Shown: positions 12,536 to 38,312, numbered from the stretch's first letter. The stretch is DNA of 64,000 nt from Watersipora subatra (GCF_963576615.1 NC_088708.1:42925115-42989114); one strand, 5' to 3'. Translations and numbers: made by a program. The notes: generated by a model from the letters alone, not told the origin.

Positions 12536-13101
12536 TGTATGTATATTTATTACACCTAACAATCTCGCACACTAGGGTACGAGTAGTTCATAACGTCAAA
12601 TAGAAGTTACTAGCTTTTTGTTATGCTGCCGATTTTCGGCCTGTGATTTTCAGCTCTGAATAATATAGCATGTGAGATAAAGAAGGAAACAATGGGATTC
12701 CATTTGTCGGTAGGGCTAGAAGTCTTCACAAATTCGACAACTGGGACAGGCGTAGAGCATGCTGTAGAGTGTGTCACATAATCCCAACACAACTGGTAAC
12801 TCTAAGTGATAAATGCCATAATGTAACAACTATACAGCTCTAGTCTAAGCTTGGCACTGTTTGCAAAATGTCAATACATCGAGTGTCTGCTAAAAGTTCA
12901 CACTTGTAAACACTGAGGAGCTTTCCAGGGTTTATTCATACAGTTGACCAACCAACGAGCCACACATTTGATCAACTCTAGTGGAGAAAAATCGCTGTAT
13001 CACGCAAAGGCTCTTTATTGCACTAAGAAACTTTCAGCTTTTTTGATCAACATCATTAAGTTCATTGTTTGGTTCCTTGTTTTAAATAATGGTTTTATGC
13101 A

Positions 13102-13107
13102 TTTATT
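13102..13107 (-). terminator. putative polyA signal (AATAAA on the - strand) for the unknown gene
   Basis: A plus-strand tttatt lies about 100 nt downstream of the stop codon. Confidence 0.3.
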
Positions 13108-13209
13108 TTACTGTATGCAATATCCCAAAAAGTGCAAGAAAGTGTTTTATGTAATACACAAAACGCATCAAACGCAGCAGGCGGCAAGCGTCTAGGTTGG
13201 TTTTGGCAG

Positions 13210-25907: not shown

Positions 25908-26405
25908 TATTGGTGTCAGATTGGTAGGTGTCAGAATGTATAGGTGCCAGATTGTCTAAGTGTCAGAGTGTGTAGGTGTCAGAGTGTATAGGTGTTGGAT
26001 TGTGTAGGTGTCAGAGTGTTTAGGTGTCAGAGTGTCTAGATGTCAGTGTGTAGGCGTCAGAGTGTTTAGGTGTCAGAGTGTTTAGGTGTCAGAGTGTTTA
26101 GATGTCAGAGTGTATAAGTGTCAGAGTGTGTAGGTGTCAGAGTGTCTAGATGTCAGTGTGTAGGCGTCAGAGTGTTTAGGTGTCAGAGTGTTTAGGTGTC
26201 AGAGTGTTTAGATGTCCGAGTGTATAAGTGTCAGAGTGTGTAGGCGTCAGAGTGTTTAGGTGTCAGAGTGTTTAGGTGTCAGAGTGTCTAGATGTCAGTG
26301 TGTAGGCGTCAGAGTGTTTAGGTGTCAGAGTGTTTAGGTGTCAGAGTGTTTAGATGTCAGAGTGTATAAGTGTCAGAGTGTATAGGTGTCAACGTGTGTA
26401 GGTGA
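25908..26405. repeat. minisatellite: 16-bp unit (aggtgtcagagtgttt) x about 31, with a 123-bp higher-order repeat x3
   Basis: The 123-bp block recurs at about 26020, 26143 and 26266. Confidence 0.9.
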
Positions 26406-26482: not shown

Positions 26483-26795
26483 TAACTATTTAGGTCAACT
26501 ATACATGTAAATACTACCAAAGATAAAATGCTAACATAGCTACATTCAAAACAAGAACAAATATTTGCATAATTGAATGGTTTCACTTTATATTCACGGA
26601 TCTAACTGAGAAGCGACAAATCAGTTTTGTTGCTATAACAACAGCTCACAAAATAGCTTCTTCAAGTCCTTTTAGAAAGGCTTTTAGAACTTGATTCTAT
26701 AACTTTACATAAGTGTGTAGTTCTCACACAGTGCACATCTTTTAATAGAATTATTTGAAAGCTAATTCTAGAATAAGACGTTTATAATGGTTTCT
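26483..26795. repeat. flank A, left arm of a 300-bp inverted duplication (about 95% identical to the reverse complement of 30366-30660)
   Basis: Direct comparison shows that the reverse complement of 30400-30660 matches 26483-26745 nearly base for base. Confidence 0.8.
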
Positions 26796-26827
26796 ATATA
26801 TATATATATACATGTATATATATATAT

Positions 26828-26877
<50 letters not shown>
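26795..26877. repeat. (TA)n microsatellite with CATG interruptions
   Basis: This simple repeat lies at the copy-1 3' junction. Confidence 0.95.
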
Positions 26878-26878
<1 letters not shown>

Positions 26879-28334
26879 AAAATTGTTTCCTCACCCTGGT
26901 CAACCCGTATGGGTGGTAATTTCTGCTCTAACTCGGGTCTCCTACCAGAGACCTGGGAGTTTGAGCACACGCCTCAAGGTCTTAGTTGTTCCCAGTAGCG
27001 CACTTTTCTGCAACTCACCTGAGTTGATTGCTGTTGGTATTTGGGCAAGCCACATTTTATGCGCCGGTGTTATTGCGCCTAGTGCCCCAATAATTACTAG
27101 GATTACAGTTGTTCTTACATCCCAGCATTTTTCAATCTCTTCTCCAAGAGGGAGATATTTCTCTACCTTTTCCTTTTCTTTGCTGTCTATATTGTAGTCA
27201 TTGGGTACTGCTATATCTATTATAGTAGCCCTCTTGTGCTCCTTGTCCACCACCACTATATCTGGTTGGTTTGCTAGGACATGCTTGTCAGTCCGGCTGT
27301 AGAAGTCCCAGAGGATCTTAGCGTGGTCATTTTCATTAACCTTACCAGGAGCTTCCCATCTGTGTTGTGGTTTACTAAGGCCATACTCATCACATAGACT
27401 TCTATACACAACACTTGCGACATGATTATGCCGCTCAGTGTATGCGTTTCCTGCTAGCTGCTTGCATCCACTGATGATGTGTTGGATGGTCTCAGGTGCA
27501 TCTTTGCACAGTCTGCATCTAGGATTGTCTCTGGTGTGATAGATTTTTGTTTGGAGTTGCGTTGTTGGGAGCACTTGCTCCTGGGCTGACATGATTAGCG
27601 ACTCTGTATTGGCCGTTAGGTTTCCTTTGTTCAGCCACATATATGTCTGGTGAAGATCACCAACCTTAGATATTTGTTGGTGGTAAGCACCATGAAGAGG
27701 TTTCATGTGCTAGTCAGTTTCCTCATCATCGCTGCGAAAATCCATTGTCAGAGCAGCTGATTGAAATTCAGCTAGCAACCTATCTGAAGTGGCCATGGAA
27801 GCTGCATAGGTGTTGATGCTTTGTTCTTCTTTTTTCACTGTCTGCTGCACACTTTTGAGTCTCCTACCGCCATATTTCCTATCGAGTTACAATCTAGTAG
27901 TATCAGATTTTGGGCAGAGTGCTCCATGCATGGTCAGCAGTTTACGAGTTGCTATATATGTTTCCTTGATGGATTCCTCAGTCCACTTTATTATGCCTGC
28001 TGGATATCTTATTACTGGCAGTGCGTAAGTATTTATTGCCATGACTTGGTTTTTGGAATTATGCTGGCTCCGTAGGACCTGCCGAAGGCGTTTCTTGTAT
28101 TCGGTAATGGCCTTGTGACATACCTCGGCTTCGTGGTTGATGTTGCTTTGCATAATCCCCAAGTACCTGTACCCTTCTTTTATATCTTTGATGTTACCAT
28201 TTGGCATTCTTAGGCCATCTGTGAGCATAGCATGGTCTTTCTTAAGAATTAGCTTTCCACATTTCTCAATACCAAAGGTCATTCTGATGTCCTTGCTGTA
28301 TACCTGAAAGAGTTCTTCATACGCTGCACTCTGC

Positions 28335-28336
<2 letters not shown>
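26878..28336 (-). mobile_element. RLE-type (R2-superfamily) non-LTR retrotransposon, copy 1, 5'-truncated within the RT domain (about 1.45 kb)
   Basis: The 3' end (RC) ..TTACCACCCATACGGGTTGACCAGGGTGAGGAAACAATTTTT abuts the (TA)n tract at 26795-26877, and the 5' end abuts the (TA)n tract at 28337-28382. It contains ORFs 26942..27706 (CCHC plus RLE) and 27887..28336 (RT thumb). Confidence 0.85.
26942..27706 (-). CDS. C-terminal ORF fragment of the retrotransposon ORF: CCHC zinc knuckle (CRLCKDAPETIQHIISGC) plus PD-(D/E)xK restriction-like endonuclease domain (QPDIVVVDKEHKRATIIDIAVPNDY..EKEKVEKY)
   Basis: This 254-aa ORF from the track shows the domain order and motifs typical of R2/R4/NeSL-type elements. 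Confidence 0.8.
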   Translation of the reverse strand: MKPLHGAYHQQISKVGDLHQTYMWLNKGNLTANTESLIMSAQEQVLPTTQLQTKIYHTRDNPRCRLCKDAPETIQHIISGCKQLAGNAYTERHNHVASVVYRSLCDEYGLSKPQHRWEAPGKVNENDHAKILWDFYSRTDKHVLANQPDIVVVDKEHKRATIIDIAVPNDYNIDSKEKEKVEKYLPLGEEIEKCWDVRTTVILVIIGALGAITPAHKMWLAQIPTAINSGELQKSALLGTTKTLRRVLKLPGLW

Positions 28337-28368
<32 letters not shown>

Positions 28369-28382
28369 AGACATATATATAT
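28337..28382. repeat. (TA)n microsatellite between copy 1 (5' end) and copy 2 (3' end)
   Basis: Simple repeat. Confidence 0.95.
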
Positions 28383-28794
28383 AAAAAATTGTTTCCTCAC
28401 CCCGGATACCCCGTATGGGTGGTAAATTCTGCTCCAACTCGGGTCTCCTACCAGAGACCTGGGAGTTTGAGCACTCACCTCAAGATCTTAGCTGTTCCCA
28501 ATAGCGCACTTTTCTGCAACTCACCTGAGTTGATTGTTGTTGGTATTTGGGCAAGCCACATTTTATGCGCCGGTGTTATTGCGCCCAGTGCCCCGTGCCC
28601 CAATGGCTACTGGGATTACAGTTGTTCTTACATTCCAGCATTTTTCAATCTCTTCTCCAAGAGGGAGATATTTCTCTACCTTTTCTTTTTCTTTGCTGGC
28701 TATATTGTAGTCATTGGGTACTGCTATATCTATTATAGTAGCCCTCTTGTTCTCCTTGTCTATCACCACTATATCTGGTTGGTTTGCTAGGACA
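28383..28794 (-). mobile_element. RLE-type non-LTR retrotransposon copy 2: 3'-terminal 410-bp fragment (severely 5'-truncated)
   Basis: It shares the same 3' terminus (..GAGGAAACAATTTTTT then TA repeats) and is homologous to the 3' 410 bp of copies 1 and 4. It is flanked on both sides by (TA)n. Confidence 0.8.
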
Positions 28795-28849
28795 TATATA
28801 TATATATATATATATACAGTGCCGTATATATGTATATATGTATATATAC
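28795..28849. repeat. (TA)n microsatellite between the 5' ends of copy 2 and copy 3, with the 9-mer CAGTGCCGT duplicated by slippage
   Basis: This is a simple repeat. It sits at a 5'-to-5' junction and therefore cannot be an element 3' tail. Confidence 0.9.
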
Positions 28850-30337
28850 AGTGCCGTCAGAACCACCTCTTAACCATAAACCACCTCATAAACCACCTCT
28901 TCTACATGGATGACATCAAGCTGTACGCTAACAAAGAAAGGGAGATTGATTCGCTAATACACCTCACTCAGGTATACAGCAAAAACATCAGAATGACCTT
29001 CGGTATTGAGTAATGTGGAAGGCTCATTCCTAAGAAAAACCATTCTATGCTCACAGATGGCCTAAAAATGCCAAATGGTAACATCAAAGATATAGAAGAA
29101 GAGTACAAGTACTTGGGGATTATGCAAAGCAACGTCAACCACAAAGCCGAGGTGCGCCACAAAGCCATTACCGAATACAAGAAACGCCTTCGGCAGGTCC
29201 TACGGAGCCAGCTCAATTCCAAAAACCAAGTCATGGCAATAAATACCTACATACTGCCAGTAATAAGATATTCAGCAGGCATAATAAAGTGAACTGAGGA
29301 AGCCATCAAGGAAACAGATATAGCGACTCGTAAACTGCTGACCATGCATGGAACACTCCACCCAAAATCTGATACTATTAGATTGTATCTCGATAGGAAT
29401 GATGGTGGTAGGGGACTCAAAAGTGTACAGCAGATAGAGAAAGAAGAAGAGGAAAAATGAAGCATCAAAGCCTATGCAGCCTCCATGGCCACTTCAGATA
29501 AGTTGCTAGCTGAACTTCAATCGGCTGCTTTGACAATGGAGCTTCGCAGTGATGATGAGGAAACTGACTGGCACATGAAACCTCTTCATGGTGCTTACCA
29601 CCGACAAATATCTAAGGTTGGCGATCTTCACCAGACATATGTGTGGCTGAACAAAGGAAACCTAACGGCCAATACAGAGCTGCCAGTTGCTAATCATGGC
29701 AGCCCAGGAGCAAGTGCTCCCAACAAGGCAACTTCAAACAAAATTCTATCACACTAGAGACAATCCTAGATGCAGACTGTGCAAAGATGCACCTGAAACC
29801 ATCCAACACATCATCAGTGGATGCAAACAGCTAGCAGGAAATGCATACACTGAGCGGCATAATCATGTCGCAGGTGTTGTGTATATAAGTCTATAGTATG
29901 AGTATGGCCTTAATAAACCACAACACTGGTGAGAAGCTTCTGGTAAGGTCAATGAAAATGACCGCGCTAAGATCCTCTGGGACTTCTACATTCGGACTGA
30001 CAAGCAGTACCCAATGACTACAATATAAACAGCAAAGAAAAACAAAAAGGTAGAGAAATATCTCCCTCTTGGAGAAGAGATTGAAAAATGCTTGGATGTA
30101 AGGACAACTGTAATCCCAGTAGTCATTGGGGCACTGGGCGCAATAACACCGGCACATAAAACGAGGCTTGCTCAAATACCGACAGCTATCAATTCAGGCA
30201 AGTTGCAGAAAAGTGTGCTATTGGGAACAGCTAATATCTTGAGACGAGTGCTCAAACTCCCAGGTCTCTGGTAGGAGATTCGAGTTAGAGCAGAAATTAC
30301 CACCCATACGGGTTAACCGGGATGAGGAAACAATTTT
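28849..30337 (+). mobile_element. RLE-type non-LTR retrotransposon copy 3, 5'-truncated at the RT YMDD motif, in orientation opposite to copies 1 and 2
   Basis: The + strand ORF fragments 28714..29013 (HLFYMDDIKLYANKEREIDSLIHLTQVYSKNIRMTFGIE), 29047..29292, 29687..29896 (CCHC) and 30092..30274 belong to it. The 3' end ..GAGGAAACAATTTTA is followed by the (TA)n tract at 30337-30365. Confidence 0.85.
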
Positions 30338-30365
30338 ATATATATATACACATGTATATATATAG

Positions 30366-30660
30366 AAATATTCTAGAATTAGCCCTCAAAGTAATTTTAT
30401 TAAAAGATATGCACTGTGTGAGAACTAAACACTTATGTAAAGTTATAGAATCAAGTTCTAAAAGCTTTTCTAAAAGCACTTGAAGAAGCTATTTTGTGAG
30501 CTGTTGTTATAGCAACAAAACTTATTTGTCATTTCTTAGTTAGATCCATGAATATAAAGTGAAACCATTCAATTATGCAAATATTTGTTCTTGTTTTGAA
30601 TGTAGCTATGTTAGCATTTTATCTTTGGTAGTATTTACATGTATAGTTGACCTAAATAGT
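30366..30660. repeat. flank A', the inverted copy of 26483-26795 (right arm of the palindrome)
   Basis: See flank A. Copies 1 and 3 of the retrotransposon lie just inside the two arms in opposite orientation. Confidence 0.8.
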
Positions 30661-30664
30661 TTCT

Positions 30665-30743
30665 GATATATATGATATATATATTTATAATATAAATGAT
30701 ATATATATTATATATATATACTTATGATGTATATATACTTATG

Positions 30744-30803
<60 letters not shown>
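30665..30803. repeat. TA-rich compound microsatellite at the copy-4 3' junction
   Basis: Simple repeat. Confidence 0.9.
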
Positions 30804-30804
<1 letters not shown>

Positions 30805-31045
30805 ATTTGTTTCCTCGCCCTGGTTAACCCGTATGAGTGGTAACTTCTGCTCTAACTCGGGTCTCCTACCAGAGACCTGGGAGTTTGAGCACTCACCTCA
30901 AGATCTTAGCTGTTTCCAGTAGTGCACTTTTCTGCAACTCACCTGAGTCGATTACTGTTGGTATTTGGGCAAGCCACATTTTATGCGCCGGGGTTATTGC
31001 GCCCAGTGCCCCAATGACTACCGGGATTACAGTTGTTTTTACATC

Positions 31046-31630
31046 TCAGCATTTTTCGATCTCTTCTCCAAGAGGGAGATATTTCTCTACCTTTTCTTTT
31101 TCTTTGCTGTCTATATTGTAGTCATTGGGTACTGCTATATCTATTATAGTAGCCCTCTTGTGCTCCTTGTCCACCACCACTATATCTGGTTGGTTTGCTA
31201 GGACATGCTTGTCAGTCCGGCTGTAGAAGTCCCAGAGGATCTTAGCGTGGTCATTTTCATTAACCTTACCAGGAGCTTCCCATCTGTGTTGTGGTTTACT
31301 AAGGCCATACTCATCACATAGACTTCTATACACAACACTTGCGACATGATTATGCCGCTCAGTGTATGCGTTTCCTGCTAGCTGCTTGCATCCACTGATG
31401 ATGTGTTGGATGGTCTCAGGTGCATCTTTGCACAGTCTGCATCTAGGATTGTCTCTAGTGTGATAGATTTTTGTTTGGAGTTGCGTTGTTGGGAGCACTT
31501 GCTCCTGGGCTGACATGATTAGCGACTCTGTATTGGCCGTTAGGTTTCCTTTGTTCAGCCATATATATGTCTGGTGAAGATCACCAACCTTAGATATTTG
31601 TTGGTGGTAAGCACCATGAAGAGGTTTCAT
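31046..31630 (-). CDS. C-terminal CCHC plus RLE endonuclease ORF of copy 4
   Basis: This 194-aa ORF is 99% identical to the copy-1 ORF, with a single difference (I versus M in TYIWL/TYMWL). Confidence 0.8.
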   Translation of the reverse strand: MKPLHGAYHQQISKVGDLHQTYIWLNKGNLTANTESLIMSAQEQVLPTTQLQTKIYHTRDNPRCRLCKDAPETIQHIISGCKQLAGNAYTERHNHVASVVYRSLCDEYGLSKPQHRWEAPGKVNENDHAKILWDFYSRTDKHVLANQPDIVVVDKEHKRATIIDIAVPNDYNIDSKEKEKVEKYLPLGEEIEKC

Positions 31631-32024
31631 GTGCTAGTCAGTTTCCTCATCATCACTGCGAAAATCCATTGTCAGAGCAGCTGATTGAAATTCAGCTAGC
31701 AACCTATCTGAAGTGGCCATGGAAGCTGCATAGGTGTTGATGCTTTGTTCTTCCTTTTTCACTGTCTGCTGCACACTTTTGAGTCTCCTACCGCCATATT
31801 TCCTATTGAGTTACAATCTAGTAGTGTCAGATTTTGGGCAGAGTGCTCCATGCATGGTCAGCAGTTTACGAGTTGCTACATATATCTGTTTCTTTGATGG
31901 CTTCCTCAGTCCACTTTATTATGCCTGCTGGATATCTTATTACTGGCAGTGCGTAGGTATTTATTGCCATGACTTGGTTCTTGGCATTGAGCTGGCTCCG
32001 TAGGACCTGCTGAAGGCGTTTCTT

Positions 32025-32711
32025 TTATTCAGCAATGGCTTTGTGACGTACCTCGGCTTCGTGGTTGATGTTGCTTTGCATAATCCCCAAGTACTTGTAC
32101 TCTTCTTCTATATCTTTGATAGTACCATTTGGCATTCTTAGGCCATCTGTGAGCATAGAATGGTTTTTCTTAAGAATTAGCCTTCCACATTTCTCAATAC
32201 CGAAGGTCATTCCGATGTCCTTGCTGTATACCTGAGTGAGGTGTATTAGCAAATCAATGTCCCTTTCTTTGTTAGCATACAGCTTGATGTCATCCATGTA
32301 GAAGAGGTGGTTTATCTTGGTGCCACTCTTAAACTGGTACCCATAGTGAGTCTTCTCCAGCATATTGCTTAGAGGGTTTAGGCATATGCAGAAGAGCAGC
32401 GGTGATAAGGAGTCACCTTGATAGATGCCTCGCTTAATTTTTACACTTGCCAGCTTTTTGCCATTAGCTTCCAGTTCCGTCTTCCATTTGGTCATCGACA
32501 TCTTGATGAATGCCACAAGAGCAGGGTGAACATTGTACATACTGAGGCACTCAAGTATCCAACTATGGGGAATTGAGTCATAGGCTTTTTTGTAGTCGAT
32601 CCAAGCCTTGGCAAGATTGGTATGCCTTCCTGCTGTCTTGACAGACCGTGCGATCCACCAGTAACTGATGTTTGGCTCCTCGGGTGTTGCGCCCAATTCC
32701 TTTCTGAGCAC
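32025..32711 (-). CDS. reverse transcriptase domain ORF of copy 4 (motifs AWIDYKKAYDSIPH, RGIYQGDSLSPLLFCICL, LFYMDDIKLYA, YLGI)
   Basis: This 228-aa ORF carries the canonical non-LTR RT motifs A, B' and C (YxDD). Its upstream part is frameshifted into ORF 32492..32902. Confidence 0.85.
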   Translation of the reverse strand: MLRKELGATPEEPNISYWWIARSVKTAGRHTNLAKAWIDYKKAYDSIPHSWILECLSMYNVHPALVAFIKMSMTKWKTELEANGKKLASVKIKRGIYQGDSLSPLLFCICLNPLSNMLEKTHYGYQFKSGTKINHLFYMDDIKLYANKERDIDLLIHLTQVYSKDIGMTFGIEKCGRLILKKNHSMLTDGLRMPNGTIKDIEEEYKYLGIMQSNINHEAEVRHKAIAE

Positions 32712-33181
32712 TGGTCATATAGTGACTCATGTGCTCTTCCAGTTTGTCTGCAACTATTCCTGAGAGCAGTTTTCATGTGGTGGGCAAGCACGTTATTGGT
32801 CAATAGTTCTTCGGAATCAGCCCTTGCTTTGGATCTTTTTTCAGAAGTACAGTTCATCCTTTGGTCAGCCATGCCGGATGGTTGCCTTCTTCTATTAGGC
32901 ATTCCATCTACTTAGCCATTTTAGTGTGAAGTGATGTCAATTTCTTCAACTAGAAGGCTTGAATCATTTCATGGCCAGGTGCTGCCCAGTTCTTCATATG
33001 CTGCACTCTGCACTTGATGTCCACTTCGCTGATGGTGAGTCCTTGCTGAGCCACAGTGTGTTGGTGGCTCTCTATAAGCCTCTTCAGCCAGTTTGCAGTG
33101 GTGTTATGAGTAGTCTCTTTCTCCCAGATGTCCTTCCAGAACTTTGAGGTGCTGGATCGGGGAAGATCTGACATTGGCCTC

Positions 33182-33237
33182 TGCCATATATATATATACC
33201 TATGGTATATATATATACCTATAGGTATATATATCTA
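33182..33237. mobile_element. 56-bp TA-rich palindromic insertion with a 7-bp direct repeat (TGGCCTC) inside the copy-4 ORF
   Basis: TGGCCTC is duplicated at 33175-33181 and 33238-33244. Removing the insert and one repeat copy restores the reading frame ..KGELRRP|MSDLPRSSTSKFWKDIW. Confidence 0.5.
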
Positions 33238-33995
33238 TGGCCTCCGCAGTTCACCTTTGAACTGAGAATACACTTTAGATGGATTATTGATGAACAGTTT
33301 GTTCATTCGCTTGTTATCCCGCTTTTTGGTGTACCGCTTCAGTCGTGCCGAGAGTGCTACTAGCTGTTGTTTGGCAGATTCTAGAGCTTCTATTGTGGCT
33401 TCTCTTTTTGGACGATTCAAACTGTAGTTAGATCTTTCACTAAGCCTACTAACTTTCTTGCGCAAGTCCTTGATCTTATTTTGTAGCCTCAGCTGCCAAG
33501 ATGGAATGGCTTGAAGCCTTGTTGACAGTGGCTTAATACCCATCTCCTCCAAGACGACGGTTGCCGTACTGTAGATTAAGGCATTAGTCTCACTGATCGA
33601 TTTAGTTGAGATCGACTCCAGTGCCAAGTTACTGTCTTCTAACAGCTTCTTGGGTATGGTCTTGCTTACTCTCCATAGTGGTACCCTGCTTCCATAATCA
33701 TTAGCAGCTGGCATCTTGTTGATGATATTTTCCACAAGCTCCTTCACCCTTGGGTCAAGGCCAAAGTGCATGTCGTCTTCAACTTGTGAGTCAACACAAG
33801 ACCGTGTATGTGTGACGGTGTGTGTTGATATGCACTCCTCGTTGGTCGAGATTACTTGGGTGAACTGTTCCCTAATTTCATCTACCTCAAGTTCTGATAT
33901 GAGGTGCCGCTTGATTATGTTACTTCTCTGAGCTACAAGTTGCTTAGCGGTTAGTGGCAATTCAGGGCGGATGCTTATCCACAGTTATCTGTAGA

Positions 33996-34081
33996 TACAT
34001 ATAACCGCAATTATATGTATCTGTTTAGTTATACATATATATATATGTATATATATATATATTTAGATATATATATATATA
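33996..34081. repeat. TA-rich microsatellite at the copy-4 5' side
   Basis: Simple repeat. Confidence 0.9.
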
Positions 34082-34201
34082 AAATATTTATAAGTGGAAC
34101 TTCACTCTATAAGTTAAACATTTTATTACTAATAGTTTCATGTGGTACAATCAGTATCACACTCTTCAGATAAAATGTCTAAAATGAATTTCATCCTCCA
34201 G

Positions 34202-37820: not shown

Positions 37821-38100
37821 CTATGATAAGGCTGGCATGACAATCAAAACGATAGTCCCTTTCGAGCTTTTTAGTAGTGAGACGGCTTCTTCATGAGTAG
37901 CCCCTTCCAGCGACTCGCCGTTAACTGAAACAATCCTGTCGCCTCTTTTTAGACGACCATCAGTTGCAGCTGCACCCTTTTCAAACACAGTTTTTATGTA
38001 GATAGGCAGGTTGCCGTGGGGGCTACCAAAACCACCCACAATGGAGAATCCAAGACCCTCTGTACCCTTGAGCAGTACAACTTCCTTTAGCTCAGCTTGG
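37821..38100 (-). CDS. MPDZ: MPDZ-family terminal exon: last PDZ ([91 protein letters not shown])
   Basis: The sequence is near-identical to MUPP1 PDZ13 ([73 protein letters not shown]). The stop codon is at 37821-37823. Confidence 0.9.
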
Positions 38101-38208
38101 CTACAAAACCACACAATATGCTGAAAAGAGTGATGACACATCCAACAGGAAATACTATACAACGGGTTGCAAACATATGTAATAAAATAGCTTATAGTAA
38201 AGAGAACC

Positions 38209-38312
38209 AGGAGTAACATTGAGGAGTAACATTGAGGAGTAACATTGAGGAGTAACATTGAGGAGTAACATTGAGGAGTAACATTGAGGAGTAACATTGA
38301 GGAGTAACATTG
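38209..38312. repeat. 15-bp tandem repeat x7 (gaggagtaacattga)
   Basis: The direct repeats are visible. They explain the spurious MLLLNVTPQCYSS ORFs. Confidence 0.95.

Follow-up and report, generated by a model that had tools for sequence, protein, structure and literature searches.

The 64-kb window analysed here (Watersipora subatra, NC_088708.1:42925115-42989114; positions count from its first nucleotide) contains four copies, c1 to c4, of one retrotransposon of the non-LTR (long terminal repeat) type, lying between 26.8 and 34.1 kb among tracts of the dinucleotide repeat (TA)n. The copies were delimited by local alignments and by blastn with c4, the longest of them and our reference for identities, and the same query found no fifth copy anywhere in the window. 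The features of the cluster are listed below, with strand where one applies and with repeat calls from Tandem Repeats Finder (TRF).

26484-26775: left arm of an inverted repeat that brackets c1-c3; unique-sequence flank of the original TA tract
26795-26878: (TA)n tract, 42 units with interruptions, adjoining the c1 3' end (TRF)
26879-28335, minus: c1, 5'-truncated; 96% identical to c4 over 1432 nt (blastn)
26879-26947, minus: 3' untranslated region (UTR) of c1, from the stop codon through a 5-bp stem, CACCC/GGGTG, to GAGGAAACAATTTT; the same in c2-c4
28336-28383: (TA)n tract running from the c1 5' end to the c2 3' end (TRF)
28384-28795, minus: c2, the 3'-terminal 412 nt alone (C-terminal part of the restriction-like endonuclease (RLE) plus 3' UTR); 92% identical to c4 30804-31206
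28796-28849: TA tract between the c2 and c3 5' ends (TRF, period 32 plus period 2)
28850-28887, plus: 38 nt of filler at the c3 5' junction, with a 12-nt duplication of the element sequence CATAAACCACCT (TRF)
28888-30337, plus: c3, 5'-truncated inside the reverse transcriptase (RT), beginning at ..NHLFYMDD; about 90% identical to c4, with which its alignment starts at 28888
30338-30368: short (TA)n tract at the c3 3' end (TRF)
30369-30661: right arm of the inverted repeat, a 293-bp repeat with a 95.6% reverse-complement match between arms
30662-30803: degenerate TA-rich tract, about 68 units, at the c4 3' end (TRF)
30804-33990, minus: c4, 3187 nt
33183-33241: palindromic TA-rich insertion in c4, 59 nt, with GGCCTC on both sides; interrupts the open reading frame (ORF)
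33991-34092: c4 5' flank, a degenerate TA-rich stretch and then (TA)n at 34030-34092 (TRF)

All four copies are 5'-truncated, carry stop codons or frameshifts, and are dead. Three-frame translation of c4 reveals several frameshifts and stops and places the RT at 32025-32711 and a CCHC knuckle plus the RLE at 31046-31630. DNA homology with a full-length relative, L001, puts the 5' end of c4 at about 33988-33992 and indicates that about 430 nt are missing there, comprising the 5' UTR and the first ~76 codons. An internal deletion of 752 bp has affected c1, whose final 25 nt (28311-28335) correspond to c4 32988-33012 in the junction alignment; this copy keeps an intact 254-residue ORF (26942-27706) spanning the linker, the CCHC knuckle and the RLE. 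The most diverged copy is c3, which is 84-88% identical to the others over the last 400 nt, while c1, c2 and c4 are mutually ~94% identical. No two copies share a 5' truncation point: in c4-equivalent coordinates these fall at 33012 (c1), 31206 (c2), 32315 (c3) and 33990 (c4).

At the other end, every copy terminates in GAGGAAACAA(A)TT(TT) and passes directly into a TA tract, reading GTGAGGAAACAATTTTT+ATATAT in c1, ..AATTTTTT+ATAT in c2, ..AATTTT+ATAT in c3 and ..CAAATT+ATAT in c4. The 5' ends of c1, c2 and c3 also adjoin TA tracts, and the one at 28796-28849, which holds a 32-nt duplication ((TA)n-CAGTGCCGT, twice), lies between two 5' ends. An initial annotation, made from the sequence alone, had described four copies of one element with RT (YMDD), CCHC and RLE motifs, 3' ends running straight into TA, TA repeats at the truncation points of c1-c3 and a tract enclosed by two 5' ends; our alignments, translations and TRF calls reproduce all of this, with copy coordinates within 1-40 nt. 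TRF itself calls TA tracts at 26795-26878, 28335-28383, 28794-28848, 30337-30364, 30666-30804 and 34030-34092. Outside the element region such tracts make up only 0.16% of the window, and four TA-tract insertions therefore cannot be chance.

The 293-bp inverted repeat around c1-c3 had escaped the initial annotation. Because c1-c3 lie between its arms, c1 and c3 have a 3' flank in common. No clear target-site duplication was found at this repeat, which may be a foldback or palindromic locus with a TA tract at its centre, or an old inverted duplication. The 59-nt insertion of c4 is absent from the consensus of the relatives' proteins and is thus secondary; possible origins are a tiny miniature inverted-repeat transposable element (MITE), slippage, or a nested insertion that was lost and left a scar.

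Protein architecture and family placement

The element has a single ORF consisting of an N-terminal region, RT, CCHC knuckle and RLE, and the copies contain the corresponding motifs FYMDDIKLY, CRLCKDAPETIQHIISGC (the knuckle) and QPDIVVVDKEHKRATIIDIAV..EKEKVEKY (the RLE motif). When stitched across its lesions, c4 yields a protein of 1012 residues that matches Pfam RVT_1 (E 9.5e-22, ORF 32025-32711) and, weakly, zf-RVT. In a phmmer search of the PDB, the best match of this protein is R2 (E 8e-25), followed by LINE-1 ORF2p (8e-15), and the CCHC region of R2 aligns with CRLCKDAPETIQHIISGC in the pattern C-x2-C-DAPET-x2-HI-x3-C. Residues C64, C67, H76 and C81, together with P148, D149, D164 and K176/K180/K183, are invariant in 40 sequences; expressed as motifs, the P-D...D...K...K...K-Y set and the CCHC residues are invariant in 30-40 relatives.

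Structural models agree with the sequence searches. The AlphaFold model of the 254-residue C-terminal ORF of c1 has a mean pLDDT (predicted local distance difference test) of 92.7, and its strong PDB matches are seven R2 structures only (E 4.5e-10 to 2e-6, template-modelling scores 0.64-0.71), after which come PD-(D/E)XK cap-snatching endonucleases. For P0001, the closest intact relative, a full-length model (pLDDT 84.6) matches R2 at E 8e-36 and LINE-1 ORF2p at 1e-22. Pfam detects no apurinic/apyrimidinic endonuclease (APE; Exo_endo_phos) in c4 or in six full-length relatives. An RLE-type, R2-group architecture with RT, CCHC knuckle and PD-(D/E)XK nuclease and without an APE is established. 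This is the architecture that the initial annotation had proposed, and the grouping inside an APE-type clade that it had named as a counter-indication is not what the searches return: R2 ranks ahead of LINE-1 ORF2p.

The N-terminal region is missing from all window copies. For R4/Dong elements, a diverged Myb/SANT-like domain without zinc fingers has been proposed at this position (PMC7998251). Among full-length relatives Pfam identifies no zinc-finger domain at the N-terminus, and it gives no match at residues 41-115 of P0001, where the model predicts a confident helical bundle.

The nearest protein is P0001, of environmental origin (69% identity), followed by teleost proteins from Oryzias, Oreochromis, Xiphophorus, Mugilogobius and Mastacembelus (48-58%). 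In a neighbor-joining (NJ) RT tree (~320 columns, 100 bootstraps, two R2 RT sequences as outgroup), the window element groups with L001 at 100% and these two with the teleost proteins at 74%; a 15-taxon clade that includes other families flanked by TA or CTA repeats has 81% support and is nested among loci with a (TAA)n 3' flank. A second line of evidence comes from primers for Rex6, whose published sequences Medf1 and Medr2 (PMC3728117) could be placed on the element. Medr2 matches c1, c2 and c4 at 19/22 positions at the stop codon, where 0 matches are expected by chance, and the position of Medf1 is GNAYTERH, the AYTERH motif that follows the CCHC knuckle. The literature assigns Rex6, which has an RLE, to the R4 family and handles 'Rex6/Dong' as one superfamily (PMC3728117, PMC7599744, PMC4350176); elements of Oryzias latipes have been placed in R4/Dong, a group that inserts into ribosomal DNA (rDNA) or microsatellites (PMC7998251). 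From the RT tree, the primer site and the (TAA)n relatives we infer that the element probably belongs to the R4/Dong/Rex6 group. The initial annotation had left it as an R2-superfamily lineage that matched no described family, and here we depart from it: the element falls in a group for which microsatellite targets are already established. None of the public-database cluster names for these relatives says Rex6.

Two side observations concern the fish members. Protein clusters at 90% identity (P0004, P0014, P0008; loci L090, L098, L099 and L100) span teleost orders, uniting Oryzias, Betta and Mugilogobius on the one hand and Xiphophorus, Syngnathus and Austrofundulus on the other, and by tblastn an Oryzias protein is 91-93% identical in amino-acid sequence to the goby and Betta loci. 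Such high identity across orders suggests either recent horizontal transfer or unusual conservation.

Evidence for (TA)n as the probable integration target

Whether TA repeats are the target of the element, as the initial annotation had suggested, or a by-product of its insertion can be judged from relatives with visible flanks. We assembled contigs encoding exact database proteins, 80 metagenome loci and four chromosome-level fish loci. Among independent copies of the sub-clade, counted in the window, three fish genomes and environmental contigs, 17/20 3' junctions and 13/16 5' junctions lie in TA tracts, although five of the 17 are short or degenerate; the background density of TA tracts, measured at the same loci and in the window away from the elements, is 0.05-0.16%. 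The most informative relatives are the following.

L090: Mugilogobius (goby) chromosome, full-length; 5', ~29-33 TA units directly before the first base; 3', ...ATCATTTTTT then (TA)13
L097: environmental contig, full-length; 5', (TA)22; 3', (AT)13
L002, L003, L005: environmental contigs, full-length; 5', TA immediately before the start
L008: environmental contig; 5' end not visible; 3', two tail-to-tail copies across (TA)9
L098: Mugilogobius, truncated; long TA tract on both sides
L100: Betta, two tandem copies; A, 5' end in unique sequence; B, 5' end adjoining the shared (TA)~80 between the copies
L099: Oryzias (medaka), full-length; 5', (TA)55; 3', T17 then unique sequence

Full-length relatives therefore start after (TA)n and end in it (L090, L097 and the family of L002, L003 and L005, most members of which end AATAAATTTTT and then TA; in L099 this applies to the 5' side only), and the truncated copies L098 and L100B likewise have TA at the truncation point.

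Related families bear different repeats in the same positions. The sister family L091-L094, 51-52% identical in amino-acid sequence to the window element, is flanked by (CTA)n on both sides, for instance at L091:9700-10000 and 13040-13130; the repeat is therefore more than a tail: it is the target, and one that has shifted within the clade. In the broader set, (TAA)n lies 50-150 nt past the stop codon, with the sense strand reading AAT in 19 loci and ATT in just one, and also precedes the 5' end where that end is visible (L013, L016). Since TA is self-complementary, insertions into it are found in both orientations, whereas (TAA)n flanks run one way in 19/20 loci. Most contigs of L010-L089 measure 3.4-4.4 kb, about one element length, and are broken in the flanking microsatellite. 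At one locus, L096, the 5' flank is TA but the 3' flank is (ACT)n, and the element has an AACAG-T8 end like that of the CTA family; this locus could be a recombinant, a tract-boundary insertion or a chimeric assembly.

Judged by these junction sequences, the idea of a (TA)n target holds for the sub-clade, in contrast to the (TAA)n of its relatives. For the window itself, we think it probable that an R4/Dong/Rex6-group non-LTR retrotransposon inserted at least four separate times to form a nest, and that its lineage integrates specifically into (TA)n. Observations underlying this reading are the R2-like fold, the presence of TA at both junctions, and a separate 3' terminus and distinct 5' truncation for each copy; the individual 3' ends, the differing 5' ends and the unequal divergence speak for four events.

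Three other explanations deserve consideration. In the first, (TA)n would be a 3' tail encoded or generated by the element, and TA at 5' junctions would arise from later copies landing in earlier tails. TA does stand at the 3' end of every copy, three of the four window copies are packed so closely that a 5' junction could touch a neighbour's tail, and L099 and L001 each have one junction without TA. We nevertheless consider this very unlikely: the tract at 28796-28849 has a 5' end on either side and can be no copy's tail, solitary full-length copies have TA directly upstream (~58 nt in L090, ~110 nt in L099, ~44 nt in L097), the 5'-truncated L098 has it on both sides, and sister families have (CTA)n or (TAA)n on both sides.

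Alternatively, the cluster could be mainly a segmental or inverted duplication of one insertion with its flank, produced through TA-palindrome hairpins, in which case the copies would not be independent evidence. The opposite orientation of c1 and c3 and their common 293-bp 3' flank at 95.6% identity fit such an origin, which also predicts common breakpoints and equal divergence. Yet the 5' ends of c1 and c3 differ (33012 with the 752-bp deletion against 32315, c4-equivalent), and c1 and c3 are only 86-91% identical, compared with 94-96% for c1 and c4 and 95.6% for the flanks. Moreover, c2 and c4 have 3' termini of their own, and the conclusion about the target comes mostly from unrelated loci. 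On the differing 5' ends and unequal divergence we reject inverted duplication as the main origin of the cluster, and we rate this explanation as slightly less credible even than that of a tail.

Least probable of all is a passive association, with near-random or AT-rich insertion followed by survival in TA or low-recombination repeats, or with TA expanding from a terminal TTTTATAT seed: although Rex6 signals in fluorescence in situ hybridization cluster in heterochromatin and at chromosome ends (PMC6274825), and although TA tracts mutate readily and might lengthen once an element has inserted, the junctions are exact, with the first or last base set against the tract at many loci, including gene-rich fish regions (L090 sits between PRY/SPRY and NLR genes), the differing (CTA)n or (TAA)n on both sides of sister families is not predicted, and, where the 5' ends of the copies differ, secondary expansion cannot have put TA upstream of them.

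Several points weigh against specific (TA)n integration by an R4/Dong/Rex6-group element. In the window, some 36-40 nt of degenerate TA-rich sequence separate c4 at its 5' end from the clean tract, and the four copies occupy just two neighbouring tracts, with the flank of c1 and c3 in common. Among relatives, L001 and L100A have 5' ends in unique sequence and L004 lies head-to-head with another copy; at the 3' side, L002 has an aberrant end, L096 runs into (ACT)n and L099 has T17 and then unique sequence. Short metagenome contigs, some of them possibly chimeric, supplied the majority of relatives, and no empty site was observed. The placement, for its part, comes from an NJ tree only, with moderate support and no bona fide R4, Dong or Rex6 references.

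Target-primed reverse transcription (TPRT) by R2 is established both biochemically and structurally. If the window element worked by analogy, its protein would bind the conserved 3' UTR of its own RNA. In this region the 5-bp stem CACCC/GGGTG has compensatory changes in 2/5 pairs across 10 copies and families (RNAalifold), and an A-rich stretch and usually a T-run follow it; a hairpin with two compensatory pairs is suggestive, not proof, of a conserved RNA structure. The N-terminal Myb/SANT-like domain, as proposed for R4/Dong (PMC7998251), might read the target. The RLE would then nick one strand within the TA tract, and the freed 3'-OH would prime reverse transcription from the 3' end of the RNA, as in R2; incomplete reverse transcription or template jumps, again as for R2, could generate the 5' truncations and the filler at the c3 5' junction.

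Because (TA)n is its own reverse complement, insertion is possible in either orientation, and both are found within one tract, where c3 is a plus-strand copy but c1 and c2 are minus-strand copies; the tail-to-tail copies of L008 and the head-to-head copies of L004 provide parallels. Each insertion also leaves two TA tracts that are again targets, hence the nest, with three copies in one former tract and the fourth in the next. The simplest history would start from a palindromic locus with a (TA)n centre, which c3, c2 and c1 entered successively, while c4 inserted in the neighbouring tract.

The 5' head of full-length relatives and other features of the window

Full-length relatives start at the microsatellite junction with a head of ~75 nt containing tRNA-type box A and box B motifs (e.g. 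GCGCAGTTGGTAG ... GGGTTCGATTCC), and an invariant CYTGGRCAAG motif follows about 40-150 nt after it. We take this motif to resemble the core of MIR/CORE-SINEs (SINE, short interspersed nuclear element). The head regions, which the window copies lack, are located as follows.

L090:9806-10000
L097:132-345
L005:35-221
L099:870-1100
L092:103-272

ARAGORN finds no tRNA in the window or in the full-length relatives, and Rfam finds no tRNA or HDV-like (hepatitis delta virus) ribozyme in the 5' heads at E<=1 or E<=10, returning only TA-driven microRNA-like junk; 'tRNA-like' therefore refers to the box-like motifs only. Internal runs of at least four T on the sense strand are rare in six independent families (ORFs of L001, L005, L090, L091, L092 and L095), at 1 against ~7 expected by codon shuffling, compared with 295 against 251 expected in other Dong-like loci (L010-L077). 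A T-run just before the repeat ends most copies of the TA/CTA clade.

These features raise the possibility, which we consider doubtful, of a long interspersed nuclear element (LINE) that has an RNA polymerase III (Pol III)- or SINE-type 5' module in common with CORE-SINEs and a target repeat re-programmable among TA, CTA and TAA. If this were so, the head could serve as a promoter or as a signal for processing; alternatively, the LINE might be the long-sought partner of that SINE module, or its source. A Pol III reading is disfavoured by T5 right after the head in two families, by Betta copies without a terminal T-run and by the generally T-poor strand.

Two further features lie outside the cluster. 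At 25912-26404, just left of the inverted-repeat arm, the 16-bp unit GGTGTCAGAGTGTTTA is repeated in tandem ~31 times, and the array has a higher-order period of 110. On the minus strand, 37821-38297 holds a PDZ-domain exon of MPDZ/PATJ-like type (Pfam E 1.3e-18), which is 68-73% identical alike to proteins of fish, amphioxus, octopus and a priapulid and 96% identical to one environmental contig only. Taken by itself, the exon points, if weakly, to a metazoan host that is probably not a teleost, a further difference from the fish carriers of Rex6.

Implications and comparison with known systems

Microsatellite targeting is already known for this clade, and (TA)n targeting is a real but modest extension of that behaviour. 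No (TA)n target is stated for any RLE LINE in the literature we could search, which left Repbase, Volff et al. 2001 and Novick et al. 2009 uncovered, and these may well note it. The commonest AT dinucleotide microsatellite would thus join the repeats to which RLE LINEs home. The target would shift among (TA)n, (CTA)n and (TAA)n within one small clade while the enzyme core stays the same, making the clade a natural experiment in how R2-like proteins read their targets, which is of topical interest now that engineering of R2 proteins for site-specific gene insertion is under way. The same behaviour would account for Rex6-like tandem and nested arrays, for short-read assemblies that break at ~3.5 kb and for interrupted TA microsatellites. 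For the window itself the outcome is unremarkable: all four copies are dead, and there is no hint of a function for the host.

The element resembles R2, which inserts into 28S rDNA (structures 8gh6, 9dou, 9nl2 and 9nl3), in architecture, fold, CCHC motif and presumed TPRT mechanism, but has no rDNA flanks, no N-terminal zinc fingers by Pfam and only 16-19% identity. It is accordingly not R2 in the strict sense, which inserts at the 28S site and has N-terminal zinc finger(s) plus Myb. Other elements share the preference for simple repeats. Togen, a NeSL-related fish element that targets (TG)n, and some HERO families are also microsatellite-specific LINEs (PMC4640811), but belong to the NeSL and HERO clades; Kibi, Koshi, Waldo and Mino are microsatellite-specific too, but fall in the APE-bearing Tx1/R1 clades. 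The repeats used by these families are (TG)n, (TC)n, (TTC)n, (ACAY)n and (AC)n (PMC4640811, PMC3812793), and no (TA)n target is reported for any of them. Micron MITEs of rice likewise lie in (TA)n microsatellites (PMC3812793), but these are non-autonomous plant DNA transposons with an unrelated mechanism.

Closer parallels are found within the R4/Dong/Rex6 group. Rex6, an R4-family element of teleost fish (Volff et al. 2001, as cited in PMC3728117, PMC6274825 and PMC7599744), likewise has a single ORF with RT and RLE, frequent 5' truncation and primer sites at homologous positions, and the RT of the window element groups with proteins from Xiphophorus, Oryzias and Oreochromis, taxa in which Rex6 was defined; protein identity to the fish sequences is, however, only 54-58%. 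The accessible papers, which do not include the original Rex6 description, state no (TA)n target for it, and one review describes the family as specialised for rRNA genes. Dong, from Bombyx mori, Anopheles, Biomphalaria and Darwinula, is an RLE-type LINE that inserts into a microsatellite, (TAA)n (PMC3812793, PMC7998251), and the broader relatives of the window element mostly have (TAA)n after the 3' end (19 loci), and at the 5' end where visible. In the strict sense, Dong is defined by (TAA)n insertion, which we find only in these more distant relatives; the window element instead belongs to a separate sub-clade (81% bootstrap) whose apparent target is the dinucleotide (TA)n, entered in both orientations.

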